The notes beneath the pieces are model-generated. The model worked only from the letters and a program-made list of their open reading frames with translations, had not been told where the DNA came from and did no database searches. From NCBI GenBank assembly GCA_964425075.1, contig CAYRKM010000001.1, forward strand, positions 18,756 to 82,755: 64,000 bases of DNA, in the 5' to 3' direction. A program made the translations under genes and the position numbers. The stretch is from an uncultured Gammaproteobacteria bacterium. Its GTDB lineage: Bacteria; Patescibacteriota; Microgenomatia; Levybacterales; GWA1-39-11. Position 1 is the first letter of the stretch, and every line of letters begins with the position of its first letter. This document shows, piece by piece, positions 5,165-50,896 of this stretch.

Positions 5165-5566
5165 TCAAACCGAGATCGCGGGGAACTCCTCCTCAACGGG
5201 GTCGTTCACCTCCATCCAGTTGTGGACGCGGAACCCGCATCGCACACAGTACTGGTCTCGCTCCTTGTCGGGGAGCGTTTCCTCTCGAATTTGCCCTTCG
5301 CATCGGGGACATGGTGGACAGCTCTCGGCGAAGAACCTGAGAAATGCCCAGATAGTCGTACGACGCAGGCCGGAGTACGGACCGATGTTTTGGACCCTCT
5401 GGTGGTAGATGGTCCAGTTGACCCGAACTGGGAAGAGGCCATCTCCAACCCGCATGTACGTCCAGTACACGATTGTTGGATTAGCCTTGAACTCCCCGAT
5501 GCTGGGAAGAACATCCATGGGTACGGAATTCTCCTCCAACACTGAAGTTACGGAACTGCTTGTCAC
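5165..5566 (-). CDS. zinc-ribbon protein, hypothetical (GC-rich island A)
   Basis: 133 aa, GTG start 6 nt after AGGAGGAGATAG RBS; CPPCPRC...(18 aa)...CVRCG C4 motif; ~60% GC versus ~35% flanks. Confidence 0.5.
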   Translation of the reverse strand: MTSSSVTSVLEENSVPMDVLPSIGEFKANPTIVYWTYMRVGDGLFPVRVNWTIYHQRVQNIGPYSGLRRTTIWAFLRFFAESCPPCPRCEGQIREETLPDKERDQYCVRCGFRVHNWMEVNDPVEEEFPAISV

Positions 5567-5881
5567 CTATCTCCTCCTAACGAAGCGCTTGCCTATCGGC
5601 AGTCTATCTACACGTGTGTTATAACATCTTCCCCAAGCTAATGCTTGGGGTAAACCTCTAAAGGAAGATGCTTTCTTACTTCAATTCATCCCCTCACTTC
5701 GTATCGGGGTTTTCTTGAAGAGCGAATAAACAGGCTGCCGTAGGCAAAATTCTATAGTCAACTTTAAAAGAACTTTATTAGCTACTTGGAAAGCAATTAT
5801 CCAATTTGCAAACAAGGAGATATTTTACTACTGTTTTTTGTAAAATACTATAGGGATTTTCTATCTTAGACTAAAGACCTT

Positions 5882-16679: not shown

Positions 16680-17006
16680 TCAAACCGAGTGACTCTCGAT
16701 GTACGTAATCACGACCTCAGATGGGTCGTCTAGAACTGTCGCAAACATCCCATAGATCTCCTTCTTCAGACCAAGAAGTGCCTCTCTGTCACCCATGTAT
16801 TCCGCGGAAACATAGATCCTTAAGGGCACTCTGGCAAGGTCATCTTGTCCTGTTGGCCAGAACAAGATTTCCACCATCCTTGGTGACACGAAGAAAGCCC
16901 TGCGTGCACCGAGCTGAGTTGCCACCGTATGCGTCAACCACTCCCGCACCTGAACTCTGTCCAGGTTGATGCGGTCTGGGTTGTATCTAACCACTACTGT
17001 TATCAT
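16680..17006 (-). CDS. small hypothetical protein, paralog A (GC-rich island B)
   Basis: 108 aa (MITVVVRYNPD...); AAAGGAGTG RBS; preceded and followed by ~90-bp repeat; ~60% GC. Confidence 0.5.
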   Translation of the reverse strand: MITVVVRYNPDRINLDRVQVREWLTHTVATQLGARRAFFVSPRMVEILFWPTGQDDLARVPLRIYVSAEYMGDREALLGLKKEIYGMFATVLDDPSEVVITYIESHSV

Positions 17007-17009
17007 CAC

Positions 17010-17105
17010 GCACTCCTTTCAGGGCTTTACGAACACATGTTGCAAGTGGTAGGGTTTTTGACCCACTCAGGCCTTAACGGCCCGCTTGCCACCACTAGAT
17101 CCCAC
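17010..17105. repeat. ~90-bp intergenic repeat, copy 1 (second copy at 17439..17540; truncated third copy at 16648..16679)
   Basis: near-identical strings GCAAGTGGTAGGGTTTTTGACCCACTCAGGCCTTAACGGC(CC/TG)GCTTGCCACCACTAGA at both sites; each carries the RBS of the downstream small gene. Confidence 0.65.
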
Positions 17106-17438
17106 TTAGAACATCTCCGACTTGATCAGCACAATCCTGACGTGTTGTTCGGAGAAGCCCGGAAGGACTGCAACCACATCCTCCTTGAGTCGCCTCGCCA
17201 GATCCTCAGAACGACGGACGCCGTGGTCAACCAGAAGGCTGACGACGAAATGGATGTTTGGGTGTAACCTGTCGGATTCCCAATCGATCCTGCTGAAGAA
17301 AACTGCCACGTCCTCCGGACGAACCGGTTTTCCTCCTGCGAAAAAGTGGCCTGCCACGACGCGGCGAATTGCCTCAGCCCTCTCGCCGAAAGGAGCAAAC
17401 GACTGTGGCTTGTAATGAACCTCTACCTGAATTTTCAT
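17106..17438 (-). CDS. small hypothetical protein, paralog B (GC-rich island B)
   Basis: 110 aa from MKIQVEVHYKPQSF (internal Met of ORF 17106..17573) with GAAGGGAGTAAG RBS; same size and beta-alpha pattern as paralog A. Confidence 0.5.
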   Translation of the reverse strand: MKIQVEVHYKPQSFAPFGERAEAIRRVVAGHFFAGGKPVRPEDVAVFFSRIDWESDRLHPNIHFVVSLLVDHGVRRSEDLARRLKEDVVAVLPGFSEQHVRIVLIKSEMF

Positions 17439-17540
17439 GGATCTTACTCCCTTCAGAGTTTCACGGACACGTGTTTTGCAAGTGGTAGGGTTTTTGACCC
17501 ACTCAGGCCTTAACGGCTGGCTTGCCACCACTAGACCTGG
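17439..17540. repeat. ~90-bp intergenic repeat, copy 2
   Basis: see copy 1. Confidence 0.65.
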
Positions 17541-17706
17541 GTTTACCTTTTGCGATATCGGCAGATGTCGCAAAAGATCTTGTGGTCAAAGATGGGATGA
17601 GGAGCAGTGCCCTCACCTCCACAATTTCCACATCCAGGATCTGGTTTTGAGGTCGGGGCTCCGCGCCCCGCCTCAAGCAGTTTCACTTCGTCATCCATAA
17701 CTTCTC

Positions 17707-20656: not shown

Positions 20657-21376
20657 CTAGGCCAACATTGCCTCCGGATGTCTGGCAAGCCAGACCATGA
20701 GGGTGTCGTTGGCTGTGGCCGAACGGTAGTTGATGCCGTTCAGCTCACCCGCGGCGATGCGTGAAAGAATCTCCCTCACGGGCAACCATGCAGTTCCTGT
20801 GATCCGCTCCTCCGTGTCGGTAGGAAGTCTGACTTGCGTCAGGTCCACTTCAACTTCAAAGAGCGAACTCCATGAGGCACAGAAGGTGGGATTGGGGTTG
20901 TGATGCCCCATCTCGACTATCTCGCCGATGAGTGCCTCAGGTGGAACTCCACCCTCTTCAAGCAGCTCACGAAGAGCAGCTGCGATCACGGTCTCCGCAC
21001 CGCTCTCGTTGAATGCCATAACCGCGGGCTGCCCGAATACGATCGGCGGGTCAGCAGGCTCTCCGGAAGGAAGGTCTGAAAATGGCCTCTCCTGGAAAAC
21101 CACTAACACTCGCCAGCCATCGGCAGCTTTGCCGGCGGCAACACCATTGATGTTTGCCGCCTCTCTGTACGCTCCCCGCTCGAAAGCGGGGGAACCGTCC
21201 GGGTTGGTCTGGACGCGAACGCGCATGGAACCAAACCGGGGGGATGTAATTCCCCAACCATCTGGATCTGGAACCCAAGCATTCTCACCACGAGTGGCAA
21301 GAAAGTCTGGGCAATCCACTGGGTCAATCCAACCGCGCATCGATGATCTATCCTCTCCTTGCGGCCTTACGGCCAC
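20657..21376 (-). CDS. Nudix-like hydrolase (GC-rich island C)
   Basis: 239 aa (GTG start, or internal MRGWIDP Met with GGAGAGG RBS); degenerate Nudix box ETVIAAALRELLEEGGV (Ex7REUxEExGU). Confidence 0.5.
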   Translation of the reverse strand: MAVRPQGEDRSSMRGWIDPVDCPDFLATRGENAWVPDPDGWGITSPRFGSMRVRVQTNPDGSPAFERGAYREAANINGVAAGKAADGWRVLVVFQERPFSDLPSGEPADPPIVFGQPAVMAFNESGAETVIAAALRELLEEGGVPPEALIGEIVEMGHHNPNPTFCASWSSLFEVEVDLTQVRLPTDTEERITGTAWLPVREILSRIAAGELNGINYRSATANDTLMVWLARHPEAMLA

Positions 21377-31688: not shown

Positions 31689-33044
31689 TTAGGTCAATTT
31701 ATTTTCGCCTATATATTTCCGAATAGTGTGTGCTGTTCCTAAAAGATTTAAACTTATAAATAGCATTTCCAACTCTTCTGCTAGTTTTGCGCGAATTGGC
31801 TCTTTTTCACTTTCAGACAAAAGCCACATTTCTTTCTTGTGAGGGCCAATTGATTTTTTTCTAAGTTTGTAGACAAACTGCTCATCATTCCATCCTTCTT
31901 TTCTTTCATTTTGAAAATTTTGTTTTGTGTATTCATGAAGTTTTTCTCGCATTGCGTCAGGTATTGTGTCAAAAACAATATTTTGAAATCCTGTTGCCAA
32001 ATGGATTTCACAGGTATTATTTTGAGGAAAATCATCAAATTTATTGTCGGGTAAAGTGGAGGCGCCATGCTGAACTGCACCTGCAAGTCCATACTTTTCC
32101 CGAGCAAGTGAACCAATGTCTCTTAAAACATTAAAATCTACATTCATTTCTTGAAGCGAACCATCGGGATTTACTACTCCACCATGGGAAGTTCCTGTCT
32201 GGACACTCACTTTACTAATTCCAAGAAGGGCTTGGGGTTCAATTTTTGCCAAATATCCATCCATAAATACGGTAAAGTCCTCAACAGTTGAATTTACACC
32301 ACCAACATGTCCTATTTCTCCACCAATTGTTACCGTAATACCTCCCGGTTGCATACGGCGAATAAACTGAGTCATGAGTGCAGTCATTTCAATATTTTCT
32401 TTTTGCTGCTCCTCAACAGTTGGCTTATTAAGATCAACTAATGTCGACGCATCTATGTCAATATTATAAAAGCCTGCAGCAAGAGCATTTTTTATCTCCA
32501 ACTGTATTTCATCAATTTGTCCTTGAGGATATTCCTGATATTTTTTTACATCAAATTGGTAATGATCACCCTGGAGAAAAACAGGTCCTACAAATCCCGT
32601 TTTTATAGCTGCAGCAAGCACAACAACGGCAATCTCATCTTGAGTTTCTTTATCATATATCATCTCTGTTCTTGAAACCTCAAAAATAAAAGCACCTGCC
32701 TCCTTCTCAATCGCCTTTTTAAAAATCTCACAACAAACATCATAAGTAATTGCGCGCAAGTTAATTGCAGGAACTGTAAAACCGGACACCTCGCCTTTTC
32801 CAAAAGCCTCATAAAGCGAATAAATTGAGGCTGGTTCTATCCCAAATTCTTTAGCTAATTTGCGGATAAAAACCCTGGCTAAATGACGAGTAGTAGCGTC
32901 TTCAGAAAGTACGGCAGTATAAACAAGATGGTCAATTCCTTCATTCCGAAGTTTTGCCTCATCCTTTAACTGAATTTCTTTATCGTGAAGTATTGCGATA
33001 TCATGCAAATTATTCTCGAGTTCTTGAGTTGAGTTAAAAATCAT
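31689..33044 (-). CDS. class II (metal-dependent) fructose/tagatose-bisphosphate aldolase family, long form
   Basis: 451 aa; LQGDH, GGEIGHVGG, TGTSHGG and VQHGAS segments align to class II Fba catalytic elements. Confidence 0.7.
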   Translation of the reverse strand: MIFNSTQELENNLHDIAILHDKEIQLKDEAKLRNEGIDHLVYTAVLSEDATTRHLARVFIRKLAKEFGIEPASIYSLYEAFGKGEVSGFTVPAINLRAITYDVCCEIFKKAIEKEAGAFIFEVSRTEMIYDKETQDEIAVVVLAAAIKTGFVGPVFLQGDHYQFDVKKYQEYPQGQIDEIQLEIKNALAAGFYNIDIDASTLVDLNKPTVEEQQKENIEMTALMTQFIRRMQPGGITVTIGGEIGHVGGVNSTVEDFTVFMDGYLAKIEPQALLGISKVSVQTGTSHGGVVNPDGSLQEMNVDFNVLRDIGSLAREKYGLAGAVQHGASTLPDNKFDDFPQNNTCEIHLATGFQNIVFDTIPDAMREKLHEYTKQNFQNERKEGWNDEQFVYKLRKKSIGPHKKEMWLLSESEKEPIRAKLAEELEMLFISLNLLGTAHTIRKYIGENKLT

Positions 33045-33271
33045 AAGTTGATGATAAATGCTTGATGGTAGATGGAAAATGAAATTGAAGTAAAACTCAT
33101 ATTAACCATTTATCATTTGCCATTCATCATTATATTTAGTGTACGGGAGATAAGAAATCTCAGTCAAGTAGAACAAACGGTATCTGTGCATTGCGAAGAA
33201 TTTAATGGTTGGTGGGAGACGAGCGCGCGTGCGCATCGCCCCCCACCGGTAGTCGCAGAGTTGATAGGTGC

Positions 33272-33436
33272 TCACCTCGGATGACCCCTCCAGTGGTCGG
33301 GAGGCCTCGGCCGTCCAGCTTGCTCTTGTGCCCATTGCTCGTCGGCAATCCGTCGGTCTCGCCGCCAGGCAAAACCTAGCACGACATACACAATCAGACC
33401 GCCAAGGACGAATCCGAGAACAAACGCTCCAAGCAT
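33272..33436 (-). CDS. small single-TM peptide (54 aa), island D
   Basis: MLGAFVLGFVLGGLIVYVVLGFAWRRDRR...; preceded by CCGGCGCAAGCCGG palindrome plus AGGAAGGGAG RBS; not in ORF track (<60 aa). Confidence 0.4.
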   Translation of the reverse strand: MLGAFVLGFVLGGLIVYVVLGFAWRRDRRIADEQWAQEQAGRPRPPDHWRGHPR

Positions 33437-33469
33437 GTCTGTCTCCCTTCCTCCGGCTTGCGCCGGAAG

Positions 33470-33613
33470 CTAGTCTCTTCGATTGTTGGGTGGACGGCCG
33501 TAACCGTGCGTTGGTTGTTCTCCGGCAAGGATGATCCTGCCGAGTTTGGCCGTCAGCAGGAGACCTCCTGCCAAAACGACCACGATAACCACAACCCACA
33601 CGGGTAGCGACAC
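33470..33613 (-). CDS. small single-TM peptide (47 aa, GTG start), island D
   Basis: VSLPVWVVVIVVVLAGGLLLTAKLGRIILAGEQPTHGYGRPPNNRRD; preceded by CCGGCGCGAGCCGG palindrome plus GGAAGGAGG RBS. Confidence 0.4.
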   Translation of the reverse strand: MSLPVWVVVIVVVLAGGLLLTAKLGRIILAGEQPTHGYGRPPNNRRD

Positions 33614-33647
33614 AATCTGCCTCCTTCCACCGGCTCGCGCCGGGGCG

Positions 33648-33959
33648 CTAACGATGGCCTAGATTGTAGACCACCTCCCTATGGAAATTCCTGAACTCCC
33701 ACGACCTTGCTGATGCATTGTGGACGTCCTCATCTTGACTTGGAATCGTCGATAAGATCGTCCTCAGTTGACTAGCATACTCACGGATTTCACCGATTTG
33801 TGCGGGTTTTACCCCACGAAAACCATGCCGCAGCATGATTTCATAGCTCACGATTCTGGTGATTTTTCCCCTGAGTACTCCCATCAGGACAAGCCTCTCG
33901 TCAAGGCTCATTCTCTGAACCCGTTGTCTGAAGTTCGAGTTACCTCGTCGAGTAGTCAT
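33648..33959 (-). CDS. hypothetical small protein, possible DNA-binding (island D)
   Basis: 103 aa from MTTRRGNSNFRQRV (internal Met where GC-rich sequence begins); GGAAGGGG RBS; upstream perfect palindrome GTGCC-GCGAG-GGCAC. Confidence 0.4.
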   Translation of the reverse strand: MTTRRGNSNFRQRVQRMSLDERLVLMGVLRGKITRIVSYEIMLRHGFRGVKPAQIGEIREYASQLRTILSTIPSQDEDVHNASARSWEFRNFHREVVYNLGHR

Positions 33960-34357
33960 GACTGCCCCTTCCGTTAGATGCTTGAGTTTCACTCTGCGTT
34001 GTAAATGTGCAATGTGCCCTCGCGGCACAAGCAAATTACACCGCAGAACACAATTGGGGAAATTATATACTTTTGAAGTCATATTTACCACAAAGTGATA
34101 ATTATCAATTAAGAATGAAGAATTAATTTTTTTTGCATTTGAAACGAAGAGTGTGTTATGTATTTTCGTCATTTTGTACCGAACATATGAACCGGTAAAC
34201 GAATATGAGTGGTCCGAAGGAAAAAGCTGTAAAGGCTGAGCTTGCGAACTGCCGGAGCTTTTAATGAATGAGTGAAACCGGCGAATACGTGAGGGGCAAT
34301 TGACGAGAGGCTTTGCTACTTTCGCCGGAGCGAAAGTAGAAGAAAGAGGGAATAACT

Positions 34358-35032
34358 TTAGTAACTAACGTAGTGTAAAATTTTTGCGTTTTTCTTAAGG
34401 GTTGCTACCCACTCTTGATATTTTTGTTTTAATTTTTCTTGCTCAAGATACTGTCGGTACTGCATCTTTGCATCATCAGGGTTTTTTTCGTTTGCTAACA
34501 AATCTTTATTCTGTTCTAGGAATTTATTAAATTCGTCCTCGCCTACTTTTGCCTGTTCTCCAAGAATTTTATCTACAATCAATTGAATTTTTATTTGTTC
34601 ATTAAACAGTTCTTTTGAAATACTTCTTGACTCAAGTATTTGATTCAAATCTTGACCTTGGCCATCAAGTTGCTTTTTGATCTTTGCAATTTCCTTATCT
34701 ATATCTGCCTGACTTATATTTATTTTTCGTTTAGCAGCTTCTTGCAAAACAAGTCTTTCCTCAATTATTTCTTCAAGCGCTGTCTTTCCACTTTGCAATT
34801 CCAATTTATTAATTAATGAAAGTCTAGAAATTGGTTCTCCATTAACAGTTGCTGCAACGAAAAGAGAACGGCCGATATAAAGAAGAGCAGCAAGAACAAT
34901 AACTCCAAGGATAATTAGTGTAGCTTTTCTATTTTTTGGGGCCCAAACTTTATTTTTAAGATCTGCAAGGGTCGTTTTCTTTTTTGGTGATGAACTTTTT
35001 GTTGCCTTTTTTGCTGTTTTTGCTGTTGCCAT
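34358..35032 (-). CDS. membrane-anchored SurA-N-like / PpiC-type chaperone-like protein (tentative)
   Basis: 224 aa; K-rich N-terminus, one TM, then a helical domain resembling the SurA N-terminal region; no PPIase motif seen. Confidence 0.4.
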   Translation of the reverse strand: MATAKTAKKATKSSSPKKKTTLADLKNKVWAPKNRKATLIILGVIVLAALLYIGRSLFVAATVNGEPISRLSLINKLELQSGKTALEEIIEERLVLQEAAKRKINISQADIDKEIAKIKKQLDGQGQDLNQILESRSISKELFNEQIKIQLIVDKILGEQAKVGEDEFNKFLEQNKDLLANEKNPDDAKMQYRQYLEQEKLKQKYQEWVATLKKNAKILHYVSY

Positions 35033-35377: not shown

Positions 35378-36235
35378 TTAATCGCTCTCAACTTTAAGCT
35401 CTAAATATATTTTTCTATTCGTAGCAAGTTCTAATTCTCGACGAGCCATACTTCCAATTTCTTTTATTTTTGCCCCCCCAGCCCCAATTATCATTTTTTT
35501 ATATTTTTCAGGGGCAATAATTCTTGCTTTTATAACTGTCATGTCTTTTTTCTTTCGTTCTATAATTTCATCGACTTTTATATCAATCACATATGGCAGC
35601 TCGCGTCTAAGTCTTAAAAAGGCTTTCTCTCGAATTAGTTCTTGAAGATATAATTTTGAATCCAAATTTAGAGCAGGTGTTGCCATGTCCCTTGTTTCAA
35701 CGAGCTTTTCACCAACGGGTAAAAATTCAAAAATATTATCAATTATTCTATTCAAATTTTCCCCAGTTCTTGCGCTAACTTCCAAAACAACCTCAAATTC
35801 GTCCTCAAGGAAAATATATTGCTCCATAAAATTCGGCTCTCTTTTGTCAATTTTATTAATTACTAATATCTTAGGAACTTTTGATTTTCTGATGATTCCA
35901 AGCACCCTATTTTCCTCAATTCCACGCTCACGGCTTCTATCAACTACATATACAACTACATCAATGCCATCTTTTAAGGATTGCTCTGCAGTAAAATTGA
36001 TTCCAGAAGCCTTCGCATTATCAGCTTTTGCAAAAATTCCTGGGGTATCAACAAATAATATCTGGCCACGCTCATCCTCATATACTGCCTGAATTGAGAA
36101 CTGTGTAGTCTGTGGTTTTGGAGAAGTAATTGATACTTTCTGCTTCAAAAGAGCATTTAAAAGTGTAGATTTACCAGCATTGGGCCGTCCCAAAAGGGCA
36201 ACAGTACCTACTTTTAATTTTGGTTCATTAACCAT
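35378..36235 (-). CDS. era: GTPase Era
   Basis: 285 aa; G1 GRPNAGKST; G3 DTPG; C-terminal KH domain. Confidence 0.9.
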   Translation of the reverse strand: MVNEPKLKVGTVALLGRPNAGKSTLLNALLKQKVSITSPKPQTTQFSIQAVYEDERGQILFVDTPGIFAKADNAKASGINFTAEQSLKDGIDVVVYVVDRSRERGIEENRVLGIIRKSKVPKILVINKIDKREPNFMEQYIFLEDEFEVVLEVSARTGENLNRIIDNIFEFLPVGEKLVETRDMATPALNLDSKLYLQELIREKAFLRLRRELPYVIDIKVDEIIERKKKDMTVIKARIIAPEKYKKMIIGAGGAKIKEIGSMARRELELATNRKIYLELKVESD

Positions 36236-37870: not shown

Positions 37871-38437
37871 ATGACTATAGAAAATCAAAAATATAGGCTG
37901 CAAGCGGAAGACTTTGTCACTAGGGTTGCTGAGGCAAACAAAGGCCCGCATGGCATGGCCGTTGCTTTTTCAAGAGCGCTAATTGCGTATGGACGAGAAC
38001 ATATTATTGAAGCTTTAAAACAAAAGGACCCGTCAATTACCATTCTTATTACTCCTGAAGACTTAGATAGAATTTTTGAACAAACGCCGAATGAGCTTGG
38101 ACTTATGATCGTGGGAGCAGCAAACCTAGTAATTCATCATGCTCTTGCAGACGGCCAATATCAAACAACAGATTTTGCAGAAGAAATGAATAGGGGCCTT
38201 GTTGGAACACCGATAAGGTGGGATGCAGCAAGAAAACCTGGCTTGGAAAACATTCCACAATCAGATTTGGTCGATATGTATCCATTTGCAAGCAAGGAGC
38301 CGATTTTTACAGCATTCTATGGAGAAGAAGGAATGCGTCATATTCCTCCAGCTCTTCGCGAGGAGTTAATCCCATACGTATCTTTAATACGTCCTGTTTT
38401 GCCAACTATTGCTGAGGCATGGAATTTAATTCAATAA
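37871..38437 (+). CDS. hypothetical protein
   Basis: 188-aa ORF. Confidence 0.45.
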   Translation: MTIENQKYRLQAEDFVTRVAEANKGPHGMAVAFSRALIAYGREHIIEALKQKDPSITILITPEDLDRIFEQTPNELGLMIVGAANLVIHHALADGQYQTTDFAEEMNRGLVGTPIRWDAARKPGLENIPQSDLVDMYPFASKEPIFTAFYGEEGMRHIPPALREELIPYVSLIRPVLPTIAEAWNLIQ

Positions 38438-39781: not shown

Positions 39782-39817
39782 GCGCCGGGAATCCGCCAAA
39801 TGGCGGAAACCCGGCGC
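39782..39817 (-). terminator. compound hairpin GCGCCGGG-AATCCGCCAAATGGCGGAAA-CCCGGCGC followed (minus strand) by T-rich tract
   Basis: nested perfect inverted repeats 30 nt after stop of island E operon. Confidence 0.5.
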
Positions 39818-39846
39818 TATCGCACCTCCTCGTCGGAAAGGACCAC

Positions 39847-40215
39847 TTACAGGCTTCGCCGTGTGCTCAGCACCCGACCACCAGCAACTACGCCAACGGC
39901 GAGCACAACTAGCACCGCGGCAACCGCCAGGCTGCCAGACTGGTCGATGAGACCAGACGAGCCACCATTGGCTGGTGTCTGAGGCGTCGCGGCTGAAACC
40001 ATCTCCCGACTGCCTTTCAGCAGCCCGGCATTACCCACTTTGGGTGGAGTAATCTTTACCGTCTCTTGCGGTCGTCTCTCGAAAGAGATACTAACCGCCT
40101 GGGGCAACTTATCAGCCTGCTCCTGTTCGTTTTGGGCTCGGACGAAAACACCGAGAACCAACACGAGGGACACCACCATTACAGCGGCTACCATTTCCTT
40201 CTTTCTTGAACGCAT
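39847..40215 (-). CDS. secreted protein with N-terminal signal/TM and C-terminal hydrophobic anchor plus basic tail (island E)
   Basis: 122 aa; GAGGAG RBS; ...SGSLAVAAVLVVLAVGVVAGGRVLSTRRSL C-terminus. Confidence 0.5.
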   Translation of the reverse strand: MRSRKKEMVAAVMVVSLVLVLGVFVRAQNEQEQADKLPQAVSISFERRPQETVKITPPKVGNAGLLKGSREMVSAATPQTPANGGSSGLIDQSGSLAVAAVLVVLAVGVVAGGRVLSTRRSL

Positions 40216-40227
40216 CCCAGACTCCTC

Positions 40228-40401
40228 TCAGAAAATCTTCCTGATGGCAAGACTTATGCTTACCAAAAGGAAGATGGCAAACCCGAGCGGCGGGATAGCC
40301 GGGGAGATAGCGCTCTCGCCAATCCCACTAGAACTGTTTGATAGTGACCACACAAGAGTGGCCACCATGGCCGTCACCGAGACGGCCAACAGTCGAGCCA
40401 T
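40228..40401 (-). CDS. small two-TM membrane protein (57 aa), island E
   Basis: AAAGGAGGTGAA RBS then ATG; MARLLAVSVTAMVATLVWSL...FAIFLLVSISLAIRKIF. Confidence 0.4.
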   Translation of the reverse strand: MARLLAVSVTAMVATLVWSLSNSSSGIGESAISPAIPPLGFAIFLLVSISLAIRKIF

Positions 40402-40457
40402 TTCACCTCCTTTCGGAAAGTAGTGTTACGGCAAGACCGATCGAGCATCCAGTTCTG

Positions 40458-40838
40458 TCACAGCAGTGGTGGTGGTTTCCGTCGAGACTTTCGTCTCGAA
40501 AGAAATGTGGCTACCAGAGCAACCACAACGCCCACTTCGAACAGTATCAGGATGAGCAAAGCCGATACTGGTGGATCTGGTGCATATGTTGAGGCGCGAT
40601 CGTTGAACCACTCGAAGATGAGGATGGCTCCTAACACAAGTAGCACTATCATGGGGGTGGTATAGCGCCCACGATGTGATGCATCTTGTTTCTTGGCTTG
40701 CTGGACATCGTCTGGTTTCCTGACTTGCTGGTAATCCCACCAACTTCTCAGTCCTTCGTCGGGATTGCTCCCGTATCCAGACGTGTGAGCGGCCTCCAGA
40801 ACCTCTGGTGGCCACGTTTCCTTTTCTACGCGAGACAC
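40458..40838 (-). CDS. membrane protein (126 aa, GTG start), island E
   Basis: AGGAGGAAAA-GTG start (VSRVEKETWPP...); two C-terminal TM helices and RRKSRRK tail; longer ORF-track call 40458..40937 lacks an RBS. Confidence 0.45.
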   Translation of the reverse strand: MSRVEKETWPPEVLEAAHTSGYGSNPDEGLRSWWDYQQVRKPDDVQQAKKQDASHRGRYTTPMIVLLVLGAILIFEWFNDRASTYAPDPPVSALLILILFEVGVVVALVATFLSRRKSRRKPPPLL

Positions 40839-40863
40839 TTTTCCTCCTAGGAATTTCGTCCGT

Positions 40864-41079
40864 TTAGTGCGGCCAGCCTGGCCTTGATCCTCTCTGCTCT
40901 CGCAGGAAGGCTTCCACTTCATCCCCCAACCCAACATCGAAGTCGGGCGGAAGGGGCTCGAGCGGTGGGAGTTTTGGCTGAAACAAGATCCGGTGAACCA
41001 TCACCGGACCTATCAACATTACTCCCACAACGATTGCATCGAACACAGTTTGCCGAATCCTTCGTACTAGTCGAGACAC
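40864..41079 (-). CDS. small membrane protein (71 aa, GTG start), island E
   Basis: AGGAGGAACGACA-GTG (VSRLVRRIRQTVFDAIVVGVMLIGPVMV...); upstream perfect palindrome CTGCGGAC-AA-GTCCGCAG. Confidence 0.4.
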   Translation of the reverse strand: MSRLVRRIRQTVFDAIVVGVMLIGPVMVHRILFQPKLPPLEPLPPDFDVGLGDEVEAFLREQRGSRPGWPH

Positions 41080-41297
41080 TGTCGTTCCTCCTGTCCTTTC
41101 CTTCAATTGTTCGTGTGCGATAACTGCGGACAAGTCCGCAGAGAATTTTCAGATCCCCCAACAAGGCAGCTTTTGCCAAGTTCGGTTATCCAATGATGGA
41201 ATAATACCAAAAAATAGCAACAGAAACAAACTATGGGTTAAAAATTTGTGCTTTTTTACTCTTTGTTTTTTTTATTTGAAACAATATGGTATAGTAG

Positions 41298-41729
41298 TTG
41301 GGTATGAAAATGGCAGTATTTCTACTCTTGTCATCACCTCTTCTTATTCCTTTATCCGCTTACGCAACGTCTAACACTAATGTAGAAGTCTCAAATAATG
41401 GTGGTACTTCGTATACAAATGTAGAAATTGAAAATAACACAAGCTCAACAAATGTTGTAACCAATGACTCCAAAACTAAAGTCAGAATTGAGTCAAATGG
41501 GAAAGTCACAGAATATGAATCAGAAAAACCAGAAAATATAGAACTTAAATCAGAAGATGGAAAAACAAGTGTAAAAATAAATAATGAGTCGAAAGTAACC
41601 ACTACACCTTCAAGTACAACATCCGCAAAGGATAACGAAAATGATAAAAAATCAGAAGAAGCAAATAAAGAGGGAAAAAATATTTTAGAAATTATAAAAG
41701 ACTTCCTTGAAAACCTTTTTAATTTCTAA
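41298..41729 (+). CDS. secreted low-complexity repeat protein
   Basis: 143 aa; signal peptide MGMKMAVFLLLSSPLLIPLSAYA; reiterated T/N/S/K/E-rich segments. Confidence 0.5.
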   Translation: MGMKMAVFLLLSSPLLIPLSAYATSNTNVEVSNNGGTSYTNVEIENNTSSTNVVTNDSKTKVRIESNGKVTEYESEKPENIELKSEDGKTSVKINNESKVTTTPSSTTSAKDNENDKKSEEANKEGKNILEIIKDFLENLFNF

Positions 41730-42712
41730 ACTTCCTTTTTTAGTAATTCGGAAAGTCGCGTCATACTTACATCATCATAAATTGAAACCGGCAATATTTC
41801 CTTTTTAGTCTTTGAAAGAGTTTTTATTTGTTTTTTTAGTTCTTCATCAGTCAGTAAATCACACTTTGTAAGCAGAATTATTTCTTTTTTTAAAAGCAAA
41901 CTTTTATCATAGCCTTCGAATTCTTCGCGCACAGTTTTATATGCCTCATATACGTCAGGGGTTGTTGCGTCAATACAATGCAAAAGCATTTTGGTTTTTT
42001 GTATGTGTTTTAGAAATTGAATTCCAAGCCCTTTACCAACTGACGCGCCCTCAACAAGGCCTGGAATATCAGCTAGAACTATTTTATTTTTGCCATTTTT
42101 TGTCTTTGTAGATATTGTGCCCAAATTGGGTTCTAAAGTAGTGAAGGGGTAATTTCCAATTTTTGGGACGGCATTAGTAAGGGTTTTTAGCAAAGAACTT
42201 TTCCCTGCATTTGGAAATCCGATAAGACCAATATCTGCAATAAGACTTAACACAAGATGCAATTCTTTTTCTTCACCTTTTTGGTGAAATAAATTATATT
42301 TTCGCATTGCAAATGTCTCTTCGCTTCTATCGTGATTACCGATCTGTCCCTTTCCACCTCTCGCAATTCTAACTGGTACTTTTTCTTCAAGTAACTCAAC
42401 TGCTTTCTCGTTTGCCGTATCTATAATAGTAGTCCCCAAGGGTACGAGAACAGTTATATCCTCGCCACCTCGCCCATCTAAATTTTTATTCATACCGCGC
42501 TCACCATCTGGCGCTTTTATTAGTTTTTTGAATCTAAATTCATTTAAATCATGGACGTTTGCCGAACCTTCAAAATAAATATCTCCCCCACGGCCACCAT
42601 TTCCACCATCTGTATGTGGATTTTTACTACCGTAATTTGTATGAAATGATTTTCCGCCATCTCCACCGTTTCCGGCTTTTACTTTTATTGTTACATCATC
42701 AACTAAAGACAT
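41726..42712 (-). CDS. obg: GTPase Obg/CgtA
   Basis: 328 aa; glycine-rich Obg fold (AGNGGDGGKSFH...GGNGGRGGDIYF); G domain GFPNAGKSS. Confidence 0.9.
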   Translation of the reverse strand: MSLVDDVTIKVKAGNGGDGGKSFHTNYGSKNPHTDGGNGGRGGDIYFEGSANVHDLNEFRFKKLIKAPDGERGMNKNLDGRGGEDITVLVPLGTTIIDTANEKAVELLEEKVPVRIARGGKGQIGNHDRSEETFAMRKYNLFHQKGEEKELHLVLSLIADIGLIGFPNAGKSSLLKTLTNAVPKIGNYPFTTLEPNLGTISTKTKNGKNKIVLADIPGLVEGASVGKGLGIQFLKHIQKTKMLLHCIDATTPDVYEAYKTVREEFEGYDKSLLLKKEIILLTKCDLLTDEELKKQIKTLSKTKKEILPVSIYDDVSMTRLSELLKKEV

Positions 42713-43447: not shown

Positions 43448-44263
43448 CTATGACTTGGGAGATCTCAAATATTTACTATATGCTGCTAACCATTCCTCTT
43501 CAGTTGGTTCCATGTCAGACAATATAATTCTTCCAACAATATTCTCCTCATCATTATCACCAAGTTTATTTGCAATATCGGAGAAAGCAAAAATAATACT
43601 CGATCTATATTCCTCAGGAATAAATTCTAACATTCTGCCATGAAGCGTACCCCTCGGTATAAAAATATTCACAGGCGTATTAACTGGGTCCTCAATTAAT
43701 CTAACAATTTGCTCTATTAATTTCTTGTCACGCAAATCACATAACTCTTGATATTCAAGGTGTTTTCTTTTATATTCAGGCAAACTCATGCGTAGCCTTC
43801 TACCCAGAAACTCTTTAAATTCCCTATCTACTTCAATACCTTCCTCATATATGAGACCAATATTATAACCCTCCGAATTTAACTCATCTATCGCCTGAAA
43901 CTGAGAAACCCTGTATAAGCGTTGGAATCCTTGCCCTTTTTCTACTTTTGTCCGCAAAACTTGCTCCCATTTTTCGACCGAATCTACACCACCATTCACT
44001 CCATACAAACCAACCCAATAATCATGTGTTTGTTGGGCTTCGCTGTAAAAATAATAATCAACAGCGTTTGCAGGATAAAAAGGCTCTTTTGCTTTCGTAG
44101 GTGATGCTTCCGGATCCTCTACTACAACAATATTGGTTTGCCCAGGGACAAAAACGTCTCGCATTAAATCCTTTGTTTCCTGAGTCAATGAAGACGCATT
44201 CTGTAGTTCAATTCCATGCTTTTCAAAGGCAAATGAAAGCCTCGCGTTTTGTTCTAAACTCAT
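43448..44263 (-). CDS. hypothetical protein
   Basis: 271-aa ORF. Confidence 0.5.
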   Translation of the reverse strand: MSLEQNARLSFAFEKHGIELQNASSLTQETKDLMRDVFVPGQTNIVVVEDPEASPTKAKEPFYPANAVDYYFYSEAQQTHDYWVGLYGVNGGVDSVEKWEQVLRTKVEKGQGFQRLYRVSQFQAIDELNSEGYNIGLIYEEGIEVDREFKEFLGRRLRMSLPEYKRKHLEYQELCDLRDKKLIEQIVRLIEDPVNTPVNIFIPRGTLHGRMLEFIPEEYRSSIIFAFSDIANKLGDNDEENIVGRIILSDMEPTEEEWLAAYSKYLRSPKS

Positions 44264-44866: not shown

Positions 44867-45472
44867 CTATTTCGGTAATTTGTCCCAAGGGCCAGGATAG
44901 TCTGGAGGATAAGTTCCCATAACAATATCTGTTGGTATGTCCTCTTTATTTATTAATATTTTATTAAAATCATATATCTTAAAATCCCTTTTGCTATCAA
45001 ATATTGCAATCGCAAACCTACTAGGACGTACAAAAAATGTATAATTTTTTGTTTTTGTATCAAATATGTAATTTACTTTTGCGTACTGAGTCATCTCTCT
45101 ATAGTTGGCAGGATCCATTTCTTCTAAGTCTTTGAGTTGTTGTGGGATATTCTTGTTTTCTTTTATCCTTTGTTTAATTTGTGCATGAATAGCGTGAGCA
45201 GGAATGATACCTCGATAAAAAGTACTCATGCTGCAACTAGTTGTTCCAACGATAAAGAAAAAGATTATATAAAAAAGATAGATTACTGCAAATACGGCAG
45301 GTGAGGCAATAAGCATAGTTATAAGCAGGCGCTTCTCTTTTATTCTCTTAATTTGAAAAATGATTATGAGAATAAAGATTAGTATCGGGAAGAATATAAA
45401 TACTCCCAAAACATTTAAATCATTAAGGCAAATATCTAGCACCGACTGTCTTGAAAATGGCATATCATACAT
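44867..45472 (-). CDS. membrane protein, hypothetical
   Basis: 201 aa, two N-terminal TM helices. Confidence 0.45.
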   Translation of the reverse strand: MYDMPFSRQSVLDICLNDLNVLGVFIFFPILIFILIIIFQIKRIKEKRLLITMLIASPAVFAVIYLFYIIFFFIVGTTSCSMSTFYRGIIPAHAIHAQIKQRIKENKNIPQQLKDLEEMDPANYREMTQYAKVNYIFDTKTKNYTFFVRPSRFAIAIFDSKRDFKIYDFNKILINKEDIPTDIVMGTYPPDYPGPWDKLPK

Positions 45473-49756: not shown

Positions 49757-50896
49757 ATGCCGAGTTTGCGCGGCCAAGAGGTTACCATTTCCGTCATTAA
49801 GGCGGATGTTGGCAGCATCGGAGGCCACACGCGCCCAAGCCCAACCATGATCAGACACGCGGAAAGAGCCATCGAAGGCGCAATCCGCGAAGGACTCATC
49901 GTGGACGGCTTCGCCACCTTCATCGGTGACGACACTGCCCTGAACATGCTTCACACTCGTGGAGAAAACTCGCAGGACGTACATCTCTTCGCATCAACGA
50001 CGTTCTTCGAGATGACCGGGATCGCGGAGAGAGAAGGTCTCTATGGCGCAGGCCAAGACCTCCTTGAGAGTGCTCCCAGCGGCAACGTCCGCGGAGCGGG
50101 ACCTGGTGCTGCCGAGATCGAATTCGTTCTCTTGCCTGACCGACGTTCGGCGGAGAGCATGATGATCTTCTCTGCAGACAAGTGCGGACCGGGAATGTTC
50201 AATCCCTACATCCGCGACGTCCTCACCAGCCCTGACGTCAACGGAGGGCTTCTTATTGCCTCTCCGCAGCGAGCAGGCTTCACGGTGAAGATCATCGACA
50301 TGAGTCCAGGGGCAAAGCAGGCCATCACGCTCACTCTGCCTGAAGACCGAGATGCGATGGCTGCTCTTCTGAGGACGCCAGACGTCTTCGCTGTCAAAAG
50401 CGTCTATTCGGGTCAGCATCCCGAAGAAAAGCTGATGGACTGCACGACCGACAGGCTTCACAGCTTCGGACCGACCGTGTACAAGGGCAAAGATGACCCT
50501 GTGCTCATTGTCCGAAATCAGGGGCTGTCCCTGGCACCGGAGGAGATCCTTCGACCGTGGACAAATCCGCGCAGAACCACAGGCGGCGCCCGTGGGAGCT
50601 CGGTGCAATACCCCTTCCCGAGCGCCATCAACACCCCGGTGACAGGAGCTTACTGCCAGACGCTAGTCGCCTGCATCGGCTTCTCGGTCAGCGAGGAGGG
50701 CAAGTTCTCGGAACGGGTCGACTTCTTTGCTTGGCCCGTCTGGGACTGGACACGTCAGCAGGTCTCCAAGCTTGCTAACCAGCTCTACCGCGAGGGGTTC
50801 AACGAAATGGCAATCGCCTCGAGTGGCGAACTCGCCTACACAGGCCTTCGTGACCTGGACGAGGCACTTTTGGCCCGTTTCGAGCCCATCGACTAG
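49757..50896 (+). CDS. fbp: bifunctional fructose-1,6-bisphosphate aldolase/phosphatase (class V FBPase, archaeal type), island F
   Basis: 380 aa from MPSLRGQEVTISVIKADVGSIGGHTRPS; ISVIKADxGS, GDDTALNMLHTRGE and GLYGAGQDLLESAPSGNVRGAGPGAAEIEF blocks match the FBP aldolase/phosphatase family; ~60% GC. Confidence 0.8.
   Translation: MPSLRGQEVTISVIKADVGSIGGHTRPSPTMIRHAERAIEGAIREGLIVDGFATFIGDDTALNMLHTRGENSQDVHLFASTTFFEMTGIAEREGLYGAGQDLLESAPSGNVRGAGPGAAEIEFVLLPDRRSAESMMIFSADKCGPGMFNPYIRDVLTSPDVNGGLLIASPQRAGFTVKIIDMSPGAKQAITLTLPEDRDAMAALLRTPDVFAVKSVYSGQHPEEKLMDCTTDRLHSFGPTVYKGKDDPVLIVRNQGLSLAPEEILRPWTNPRRTTGGARGSSVQYPFPSAINTPVTGAYCQTLVACIGFSVSEEGKFSERVDFFAWPVWDWTRQQVSKLANQLYREGFNEMAIASSGELAYTGLRDLDEALLARFEPID

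Follow-up and report, generated by a model that had tools for sequence, protein, structure and literature searches.

A GC-rich island in an AT-rich genome contains a probable operon for a new small protein and two membrane peptides joined by duplicated hairpin-Shine-Dalgarno modules

The stretch of DNA analysed here, to which we refer as the window, covers 64 kb of contig CAYRKM010000001.1 (positions 18,756 to 82,755 of the forward strand), and all coordinates are given relative to its first position unless another contig is named. The window contains six GC-rich blocks of 0.5-1.6 kb each. One of these, island D, is located inside a 1.3-kb gap that separates two host genes on the minus strand, and has a GC content of 0.54 over positions 33131-34047 versus 0.39 window-wide, as was implied by the GC-rich block of the original prediction (a note made from the sequence alone). 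Upstream of the island lies a SurA_N-like gene (34358-35032, minus strand) and downstream a gene that, by its sequence, we take to encode a class II aldolase-like protein (31689-33044, minus strand). The flanking genes (Era, SurA_N-like, aldolase and PGK) are presumably housekeeping genes, with identities that, SurA_N excepted, likewise come from our reading of the sequences. The minus strand of the island holds three open reading frames (ORFs), namely orf103, pep47 and pep54, each with a Shine-Dalgarno sequence (SD) at 6-8 nt from its start codon. Together with the surrounding signals they would constitute an operon in the order host-type -10 box, 57-nt leader hairpin, orf103, hairpin, pep47, hairpin, pep54 and terminal hairpin.

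Genes and hairpins of island D

The first gene, orf103 (33648-33959, minus strand; ATG at 33959, stop at 33648), follows the SD GGAAGGGG (33972-33965) and encodes a basic, Arg-rich protein of 103 aa (pI 11.2) in which a transmembrane (TM) segment is absent. Both this ORF and the palindrome upstream of it are found on the minus strand as originally described. A phmmer search that covered all of 1.84 billion cluster representatives yielded one homologue (P0002; 103 aa, 36% identity, E = 1e-8), next to two further matches at E up to 0.001 that are low-complexity repeats and not homologues, and a profile search added a second one (P0005; 34% identity). The homologues have a pI of 9.6. P0002 is encoded on a 1.7-kb contig (L004, from SRR22388078), directly downstream of a SurA_N gene, i.e. 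in the same synteny as in the window, and P0005 on a 757-bp contig (L005, from ERZ27247820) that begins inside the matching non-coding stretch. These two independent metagenome contigs and the window form the three loci of our comparative set, beyond which no homologues of orf103 were found among about 15 billion predicted proteins. A word-indexed homology search with the 103-aa protein alone returned only the protein itself, and exact-sequence look-ups with the 103-, 174-, 47- and 54-aa proteins and the aldolase found nothing.

The three orf103 proteins have the same length, the same C-terminus and the motifs M(L/I)RHGFR, ILSTIP and REV(V/I)Y-LGH in common, and arginine accounts for 8 of their 32 invariant residues. 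A codon-by-codon comparison of the L004 and L005 genes counts 16 synonymous and 22 non-synonymous differences in the orf103 frame, versus 4/37 and 4/38 in the other two, and the 103-aa frame in that sense bears a clear signature of coding and of purifying selection. The public record gives the protein in a form of 174 aa. As the frame of the extension has a TAA in L004 and the homology starts at residue 72, this longer form was rejected and the public annotation is, by the comparison of these sequences, over-extended.

Modelling of orf103 by AF2 with the three-sequence alignment gave five helices (pLDDT 85, pTM 0.77), and the protein is therefore best described, on the strength of this prediction, as a soluble, Arg-rich, all-alpha five-helix protein of a new family. 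The original prediction had called it a putative DNA-binding protein, for which we found no support: there is no helix-turn-helix (HTH) or other known DNA-binding domain according to Pfam, NCBIfam, PHROG and PADLOC, no sequence relative in the PDB, and a Foldseek search with the confident model gave nothing below E = 0.45 in PDB and 0.63 in BFVD, with no HTH protein among the top matches. A search with the single-sequence model likewise returned no relative. The basicity of the protein and its eight invariant arginines hint at nucleic-acid binding, which we regard as plausible and no more than that.

The two ORFs that follow are predicted to encode single-pass membrane peptides, namely pep47 (33470-33613, minus strand, GTG start, 47 aa) and pep54 (33272-33436, minus strand, ATG start, 54 aa). 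Each has one N-terminal hydrophobic segment of 19-23 residues (residues 3-22 in pep47), with Kyte-Doolittle 19-mer maxima of 2.67 and 2.58, respectively, values that should clearly be sufficient for a membrane helix, and a basic, Arg/Pro-rich C-terminal tail (GEQPTHGYGRPPNNRRD in pep47). The two peptides thus have the build, i.e. a hydrophobic helix plus an Arg/Pro-rich tail, that had been ascribed to them. On the basis of the positive-inside rule they would insert with an N-out/C-in topology, which would leave the basic, Pro-rich tail in the cytoplasm. Past its 103-aa gene, L005 continues with a hairpin, an SD and ATG-MPLPVWVVVVVAVLAGGLLLTVKLG, i.e. the start of a pep47 homologue, and over these 25 codons the two sequences differ by 5 synonymous changes, 4 conservative replacements and the change of the start codon from GTG to ATG. 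The peptides pep47 and pep54 are 39% identical to each other (MAFFT), with GGL, LG, RI, EQ and G-RPP in common, and pep54 is likely a paralogue of pep47. Taken together with the duplicated leader described below, this similarity suggests an old tandem duplication of the hairpin-SD-peptide unit. The ORF that follows the 103-aa gene in L004 begins with MPTQDGKMALGAA behind a leader that resembles the second leader of the window, after which the contig ends. As the first peptide position appears to be pep54-like in L004 and is occupied by pep47 in L005 and the window, the comparison hints at a modular peptide content.

A profile search with the two peptides against a collection clustered into 5.8 billion sequences found no relatives. 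The PF06305 profile (LapA_dom, LapA/YciS-like) scored 16.1 bits against pep54, under its cutoff of 28 (E = 0.011, one TM helix), and the toxin families in Pfam, NCBIfam and PADLOC gave nothing at E up to 1 except insignificant TM-like matches. Two features of the tails deserve mention in their own right. Both contain RPP followed by N or D (RPPN and RPPD; within 33272-33613), and PPN and PPD are strong polyproline stalling contexts. In addition, the tail of pep54, GRPRPPDHWRGHPR, shows a superficial likeness to proline-rich antimicrobial peptides.

Each peptide gene is preceded by a leader in which a hairpin is followed by an SD. The two leaders, CCGGCGCGAGCCGGTGGAAGG (33643-33623) and CCGGCGCAAGCCGGAGGAAGG (33466-33446), form a 21-nt direct repeat that is 90% identical over a distance of 177 nt, and a degenerate motif made from them has exactly two sites in the 64-kb window at up to 3 mismatches, with 0 expected (100 dinucleotide shuffles); the duplicated leaders of stem plus GGAGG that were reported originally are thereby confirmed. 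A scan for the combination of a GC-rich hairpin, an SD, a start codon and an ORF of at least 25 aa recovered five sites in the window, two of which precede short hydrophobic peptides, while the other three (starting at 5241, 39335 and 40773) are unrelated sequences before other ORFs. DNA scans of viral and metagenome contigs with the leader motif gave no matches.

Hairpin 1 (33630-33643, minus strand; CCGGC-GCGA-GCCGG) starts 4 nt past the orf103 stop and is followed by the SD GGAAGGAGG (33628-33620); hairpin 2 (33450-33469, minus strand; CUUCCGGC-GCAA-GCCGGAGG, 8 bp) begins with the very next base after the stop codon of pep47 and has AAGGGAG (33449-33443) behind it. Both loops (GCGA and GCAA) are GNRA tetraloops, the 14-nt hairpins fold as had been foreseen, and hairpin 2 dominates the centroid structure (-17.5 kcal/mol, z = -2.05). 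The stem had been placed directly before the ribosome-binding site (RBS), and indeed stem and SD are adjacent, but the SD itself is situated outside the 14-nt hairpin: the functional SDs, AAGGAGG at 6 nt before the pep47 GTG and AAGGGAG at 6 nt before the pep54 ATG, lie 3' of the hairpins, and the only GGAGG within stem 2 is an upstream one with poor spacing. If 90 nt are folded together, the SD and the start codon of pep47 are paired with the seven final codons of orf103 (unpaired probability 0.22 and 0.07, respectively) and the SD of pep54 pairs with codons 5-8 of its own gene (unpaired probability about 0.2). The core 5-bp stem is unbroken in each of the four copies compared (a pair from the window and single ones from L005 and L004). 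The stem of hairpin 1 reads CCGGC/GCUGG in L005 and CUGGC/GUCGG in L004, i.e. there are wobble changes only, three in number, all one-sided and located at three of the five core pairs (one each). Judged by the leaders, which are about 90% identical, and the peptides, whose identity has fallen to 39%, the hairpin-SD module is under a constraint of its own. The unit is closed by a terminal hairpin, the presumed terminator (33211-33247, minus strand), which is found 24 nt after the pep54 stop at the 3' edge of the GC-rich block and folds with -32.4 kcal/mol (z = -4.0; a stability that none of 200 shuffles reached).

At its upstream end the island has a TATAAT -10 box of the host type (34062-34067, minus strand) that is conserved in the window, L004 and L005 and whose context, TATATAATTTCCC, also precedes host gene 37871. 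A consensus promoter scanner did not call this box and there is no good -35 box at 16-18 nt; we infer that TATAAT at 34067-34062 may serve as the promoter of the operon. Behind it comes an unusually long (about 95 nt) and structured leader, the core of which is an imperfect 57-nt hairpin in the 5' untranslated region (UTR) of orf103 (33992-34048, minus strand; -27.8 kcal/mol, z = -2.8). The palindrome GTGCC-GCGAG-GGCAC (34028-34014) constitutes the apex of this hairpin, 55 nt upstream of the orf103 ATG. The leader hairpin is 95-100% identical in L004 and L005, as opposed to 34-36% for the adjacent protein, and between the window and L004 the nucleotide identity is 60-65% for the SurA_N coding sequence and 40-58% for the 103-aa gene; in terms of sequence identity no other feature of the locus is as conserved as the hairpin. 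The changes that it did undergo concern one stem position and the loop, which went from GCGA to GUAA with retention of GNRA. A covariance model of the leader recovered no copy beyond the three known ones from the window and 19 other loci, and a search of window positions 33100-34420 against Rfam 15 at E up to 10 gave no match (chance-level matches only for L004 and L005).

Another structured non-coding element is located between the SurA_N gene and the island promoter (34166-34306, minus strand). It is 72-88% identical to L004, versus 60-65% for the adjoining SurA_N coding sequence, and it folds with z-scores of -4.8 (minus strand) and -2.9 (plus strand). The alignment supports 41 pairs, with 94% of cells paired and 4 compensatory pairs, a level of pairing that was reached by 11 of 500 shuffles (slid controls gave 0-1). 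The element has no Rfam match and may represent a separate, new small RNA or a 3'-UTR element. Some further observations were made in this region. The hairpin that precedes the element (34316-34339) has a loop of the UNCG type (UCCG) and lacks a U-tract. A perfect inverted repeat of 14 nt connects the upstream element, where it reads AAGCCUCUCGUCAA (34300-34313), with codons 19-23 of orf103, where the complementary sequence is UUGACGAGAGGCUU (33891-33904); the repeat is absent from the L004 and L005 genes and may be due to chance or reflect a long-range pairing specific to the window. L004 has about 60 extra nt (857-925) between the SurA_N stop and the start of the similarity to the window, with direct TAAGTT repeats at the edges and an internal repeat, CAAGCAAGCTTCGCTTA. 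As a candidate DNA query for further relatives of the locus we give TTGCTTGTGCCNNNNGGGCACATTGCAC.

Exchange, distribution and origin of the locus

The comparison between the window and L005 reveals a mosaic. The two are 97.2% identical over the 323 nt upstream of orf103 and 85.7% identical over the 105 nt that follow it (the hairpin and the start of pep47), and the orf103 genes in between cannot be aligned by blastn (34% amino-acid identity). At the same time, the allele of L005 is similar to the one in L004 (78% amino-acid and 82.5% nucleotide identity), a locus that is more distant. From alleles that are 34% identical between flanks of 97% and 86% identity, together with the likeness of the L005 allele to that of L004, it follows at the sequence level that the orf103 cassette, i.e. 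the SD and the ORF, was exchanged for a very divergent allele in one lineage. The breakpoints of the exchange are the end of the leader and hairpin 1.

Lineages with a SurA_N identity of only 59% have retained the intact unit, in each case in the same place. The syntenic relative L002, which is more distant (65% identity of the aldolase) and in which we read the gene order Era-SurA_N-gap-aldolase-PGK from the sequences, has no island and an unrelated gap content, and the island is also missing from 45 metagenome SurA_N relatives (at most 42% identity). The gap of L002 (5015-6000 on that contig) holds a 96-aa ORF on the opposite strand (5359-5649) that has no Pfam match and lies beside a GC-rich hairpin (5308-5333); this ORF was considered as a relative of orf103 and rejected, as it is unrelated. 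Because an unrelated ORF occupies the gap in L002, the space between the SurA_N and aldolase genes seems to be a place where small accessory genes insert repeatedly.

Genes of the host and of the islands differ in their translation signals. Only 1 of 33 host genes has a properly spaced SD of 5 nt or more, and in 13 of the 33 a TATAAT-like box ends at a distance of 6-8 nt from the start codon, versus 3.3% of random positions; SD-less or box-led examples are the genes at 41726-42712, 43448-44263, 44867-45472, 35378-36235 and 37871-38437. A -10 box just before the start codon is the signature of leaderless mRNAs, and its frequency implies, as far as the sequence can tell, that these are widespread in the host. 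The candidate genes of all six GC-rich islands, in contrast, have SDs at 4-10 nt, and the GC content at the third codon position (GC3) is 0.52-0.60 in the genes of island D versus 0.22-0.26 in the two flanking host genes. Because of this contrast in SDs and GC3 the islands look horizontally derived and SD-led, and the best reading of island D is that it is compositionally foreign, horizontally derived and lineage-restricted. Two trivial explanations were rejected: TGA ends 5 of 34 host genes, so that the standard genetic code applies, and the identical AT-to-GC junction is present in two independent assemblies, which excludes a chimera.

The searches for a vehicle were negative. DNA and protein searches of phages and plasmids and scans of viral contigs with both protein profiles found no relatives, and there is no endolysin, spanin or other phage gene near island D. 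The attC site of an integron is an imperfect palindrome of 57-141 bp with conserved core sites and an integrase nearby; no attC-like site was found at the island, where the junction hairpins are GNRA stem-loops of 14-20 nt, and no recombinase is present, as judged by their sequences, among the genes within about 3 kb, to which the search for integrases was confined.

A comparison of the six islands with one another found no sequence common to them. Some of the other islands nevertheless merit a description. Island B (16680-17573) has two paralogous ORFs of about 109 aa on the minus strand (17006-16680 and 17438-17106), each with an SD and without a Pfam match; each follows one copy of a repeat of 88-90 nt that is 89% identical (17012-17099 and 17446-17535), and the design of a conserved leader and a diverged gene is the same as in island D. 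Island E (39786-41190) is operon-like, with four SD-led small ORFs on the minus strand (71, 126, 57 and 122 aa) that by eye look like membrane proteins, a leader hairpin CTGCGGACTTGTCCGCAG and, at its end, a strong hairpin followed by a T-run, a style that resembles island D. Island C encodes a NUDIX-domain protein (20657-21376, minus strand) and island F a class V fructose-1,6-bisphosphatase (49757-50896, plus strand; PF01950, E = 1.7e-96). Since both genes are GC-rich and SD-led, islands C and F were probably acquired horizontally.

A proposed coupled operon and its alternatives

Our best explanation combines an operon, hairpins that couple its cistrons, control by the leader and a module of the conflict type. 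Taken as a whole we give it just short of an even chance, and its parts differ in strength. That island D is a real coding operon is highly probable. Beyond what the preceding sections establish, namely the layout of the locus, that its frames are coding and how it is conserved, the further steps are inferred. Because hairpins 1 and 2 start 4 and 0 nt after the stop codons, a ribosome that terminates on the upstream cistron must unwind them; it would melt the hairpin and be delivered onto the adjacent SD, and synthesis of pep47 and pep54 would as a result be strictly tied to that of the upstream product. Protection of the ends of processed mRNA is another role that the hairpins could have. Such a coupling or stabilisation by the hairpins is a tentative proposal, to which we attach rather less than an even chance. 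The leader hairpin would be the probable point of control, for instance as a binding site of the Arg-rich orf103 protein. The module, then, would consist of a cytoplasmic partner (immunity or regulator) and membrane-acting peptides. We favour this over a housekeeping function because the orf103 allele was swapped between near-identical flanks, a pattern that is typical of loci under diversifying or conflict selection; a conflict or immunity role as such is doubtful.

The arguments that weigh against this explanation concern both the data and the mechanism. The comparison comprises only three loci, two of which are truncated contigs of 1.7 and 0.76 kb, the coding test of pep47 covers 25 codons only, comparative support for pep54 is almost nil, and the allelic replacement is deduced from one pairwise comparison. 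The host seems not to rely on SDs, and those of the island are putative signals in this cell. As for the hairpins, a double compensatory change is absent from the short ones, an equal occlusion of the SD occurs in 7-8% of shuffled-flank controls (a fraction of 0.07-0.08), the extended pairing of the SD is not kept and is weaker in L005 and L004 (SD unpaired 0.46-0.57), and the terminal hairpin has no U-tract and was hence not called by a terminator scanner. Finally, there is no homology, fold or neighbourhood clue to any conflict system.

A bolder variant, which we consider improbable, makes of the island a swappable, strain-specific cassette for compatibility or conflict, in which an invariant leader RNA, possibly acting together with the 140-nt upstream element, controls exchangeable SD-led cargo. 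The cargo would comprise a hypervariable, Arg-rich RNA-binding protein and the membrane peptides, and since the boundaries of the exchange fall at the leader and the GNRA hairpins, the latter would double as cassette junctions. If true, this would constitute an integrase-independent analogue of the integron cassette as well as a new regulatory pair of an RNA and a protein.

The original prediction saw in the peptides type I toxins or holin-like peptides that are silenced by leaders hiding the RBS, possibly in combination with an antisense RNA. The peptides are indeed short and single-pass with charged C-terminal tails, the structured leaders are conserved, the SDs are mostly paired in 90-nt contexts, and the hypervariable neighbour gene could be an antidote. 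Against this, the profiles of known toxins and holins yielded no family match (the best holin match, phrog_4237 in PHROG, is insignificant with E = 0.38 and 11.6 bits), a lysis partner and phage, plasmid or viral relatives are lacking as described above, and a consensus scan, which an atypical promoter could escape, found no sigma-70-like promoter on the plus strand within 33200-34060. Moreover, the cistrons of the peptides are internal and their SDs are strong, properly spaced and not part of the 14-nt hairpins, and the occlusion that arises from longer pairing is no stronger than that in the shuffled controls and is not conserved. Neither the occlusion of the RBS nor the toxin or holin function is thus borne out, and we regard the latter as unlikely. 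Likewise unlikely is that what we see is GC-rich DNA of horizontal origin that is silent or in decay, with ORFs and SDs that stem from the donor and are not expressed in a host whose translation starts without SDs. Such a remnant would agree with the foreign composition, with host genes that lack SDs, and with the failure to find other homologues of orf103 or any relatives of the peptides in the large protein collections. It is difficult to reconcile, however, with a unit that remained intact at the same locus while the SurA_N proteins diverged, with the signature of purifying selection in the 103-aa frame, with a host-type promoter and a near-invariant leader upstream, and with hairpin-SD modules that are better conserved than the peptide coding sequence.

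The remaining alternatives propose a different unit of function. The leader could act through the translation of an upstream ORF (uORF) inside the leader hairpin, a Cys-rich frame of 20 codons with a GTG start (MFCGVICLCREGTLHIYNAE; 33989-34051, minus strand), as a switch based on attenuation or stalling. The frame is open in all three loci, 2 of the 3 substitutions between the window and L004 are synonymous, and the GTG is found 10 nt downstream of the -10 box, in a genome with many leaderless starts; but over three substitutions the synonymous excess is not significant (estimated chance probability about 0.16), the changes in the loop are explained equally well by the retention of GNRA, there is no SD before the GTG, and GTG is a poor start codon for leaderless initiation, all of which leaves the uORF improbable. 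GC-rich intergenic regions in AT-rich genomes often represent structured non-coding RNA, and a 1.3-kb gap with a GC-rich core, many stable hairpins and ORFs that are open in several frames invites the idea that the block is one large RNA and that its ORFs are chance products. Apart from the negative Rfam search, this idea meets with a 103-aa region that is conserved as a protein and not as nucleotides, with a synonymous excess that is specific for one frame and with a confident protein model; for orf103 it is already largely refuted, and overall we deem it very improbable. The true gene might also be a longer form, either the 165-aa ORF at 33102-33599 or the 174-aa version of orf103, both of which are open in the window (the latter being the one in the public record). 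The two long overlapping ORFs of the original prediction, at 33102-33599 (minus strand) and 33268-33534 (plus strand), do exist, but the former has no SD and its GC content is highest at codon position 2, and it runs through the terminal hairpin into AT-rich sequence with a promoter-like site that, in a comparison by eye, is also found upstream of the aldolase gene of L002. Versus L005, there are 2 synonymous and 6 non-synonymous changes in its frame as compared to 5 synonymous changes and 5 others in the frame of pep47, a comparison that had been proposed as a check and that favours the peptide. Combined with the evidence on the 174-aa form given earlier, this makes the longer genes hardly credible.

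The genome in question, which is small (at least 835 kb) and AT-rich, gains from this locus a new family of small proteins, a pair of membrane peptides that had not been annotated and one or more conserved RNA elements that are not listed. The locus also corrects the public annotation, in which orf103 has 174 instead of 103 aa and the peptides are missed. More generally, the compositional islands are also islands of translation signals, so that the SD contrast offers a simple marker for foreign cassettes; it also raises the question how SD-led genes are expressed in such a host. Should the allelic replacement hold in more strains, the locus would provide a tractable, fast-evolving conflict or compatibility module in an uncultivated lineage.

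Comparison with known systems

Like the type I toxins (Hok, TisB, Fst, Ldr, Ibs), the peptides of island D are single-pass, hydrophobic and shorter than 60 aa, with structured RNA near the RBS. Unlike these toxins, they have no family match and come without an antisense promoter or RNA gene (by the consensus scan), and they are operon-internal, i.e. two tandem paralogues behind a protein gene, with the SD outside the hairpin. With holins and pinholins they share the small size, the hydrophobic N-terminus and the charged C-terminal tail, but the island has no endolysin, spanin or phage relatives and only the insignificant PHROG holin match mentioned above; moreover, most holins are longer than one-TM peptides of 47-54 aa.

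Membrane-anchored translation-arrest peptides of the MifM, SecM and ApdA/ApdP type offer another possible parallel, in that pep47 and pep54 have an N-terminal TM segment and a C-terminal Pro-rich motif (RPPN or RPPD) and that a hairpin touches the SD of the next cistron. The differences are that the genes downstream do not encode membrane-insertion factors, that pep54 has no downstream cistron at all, and that the PP motifs lie 5-8 codons before the stop, by which a stalled ribosome would stop short of the hairpin. Hypervariable loci with conserved flanks are known from bacteriocin immunity, the agr and com pherotypes and polymorphic toxin-immunity cassettes. The island differs from these by the lack of a recognisable toxin, bacteriocin, kinase or transporter partner and by the single strain pair in which the exchange is seen, and it is like them in that a gene has been replaced by an allele of about 34% identity between flanks of 97% and 86%.

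Translationally coupled junctions occur between the coat and replicase genes of RNA phage MS2 and in the ribosomal-protein and atp operons of E. coli; the malEFG and puf operons have intercistronic hairpins with a stabilising role. Compared to the coupled operons, the extended pairing in the island is not conserved, the module has been duplicated together with a peptide gene and the host is otherwise without SD-led initiation. What the island has in common with them is a predicted hairpin that lies 0-4 nt past the upstream stop codon, abuts the next SD and is kept across loci, and, in the window, an end of orf103 that pairs with both the SD and the start codon of pep47.

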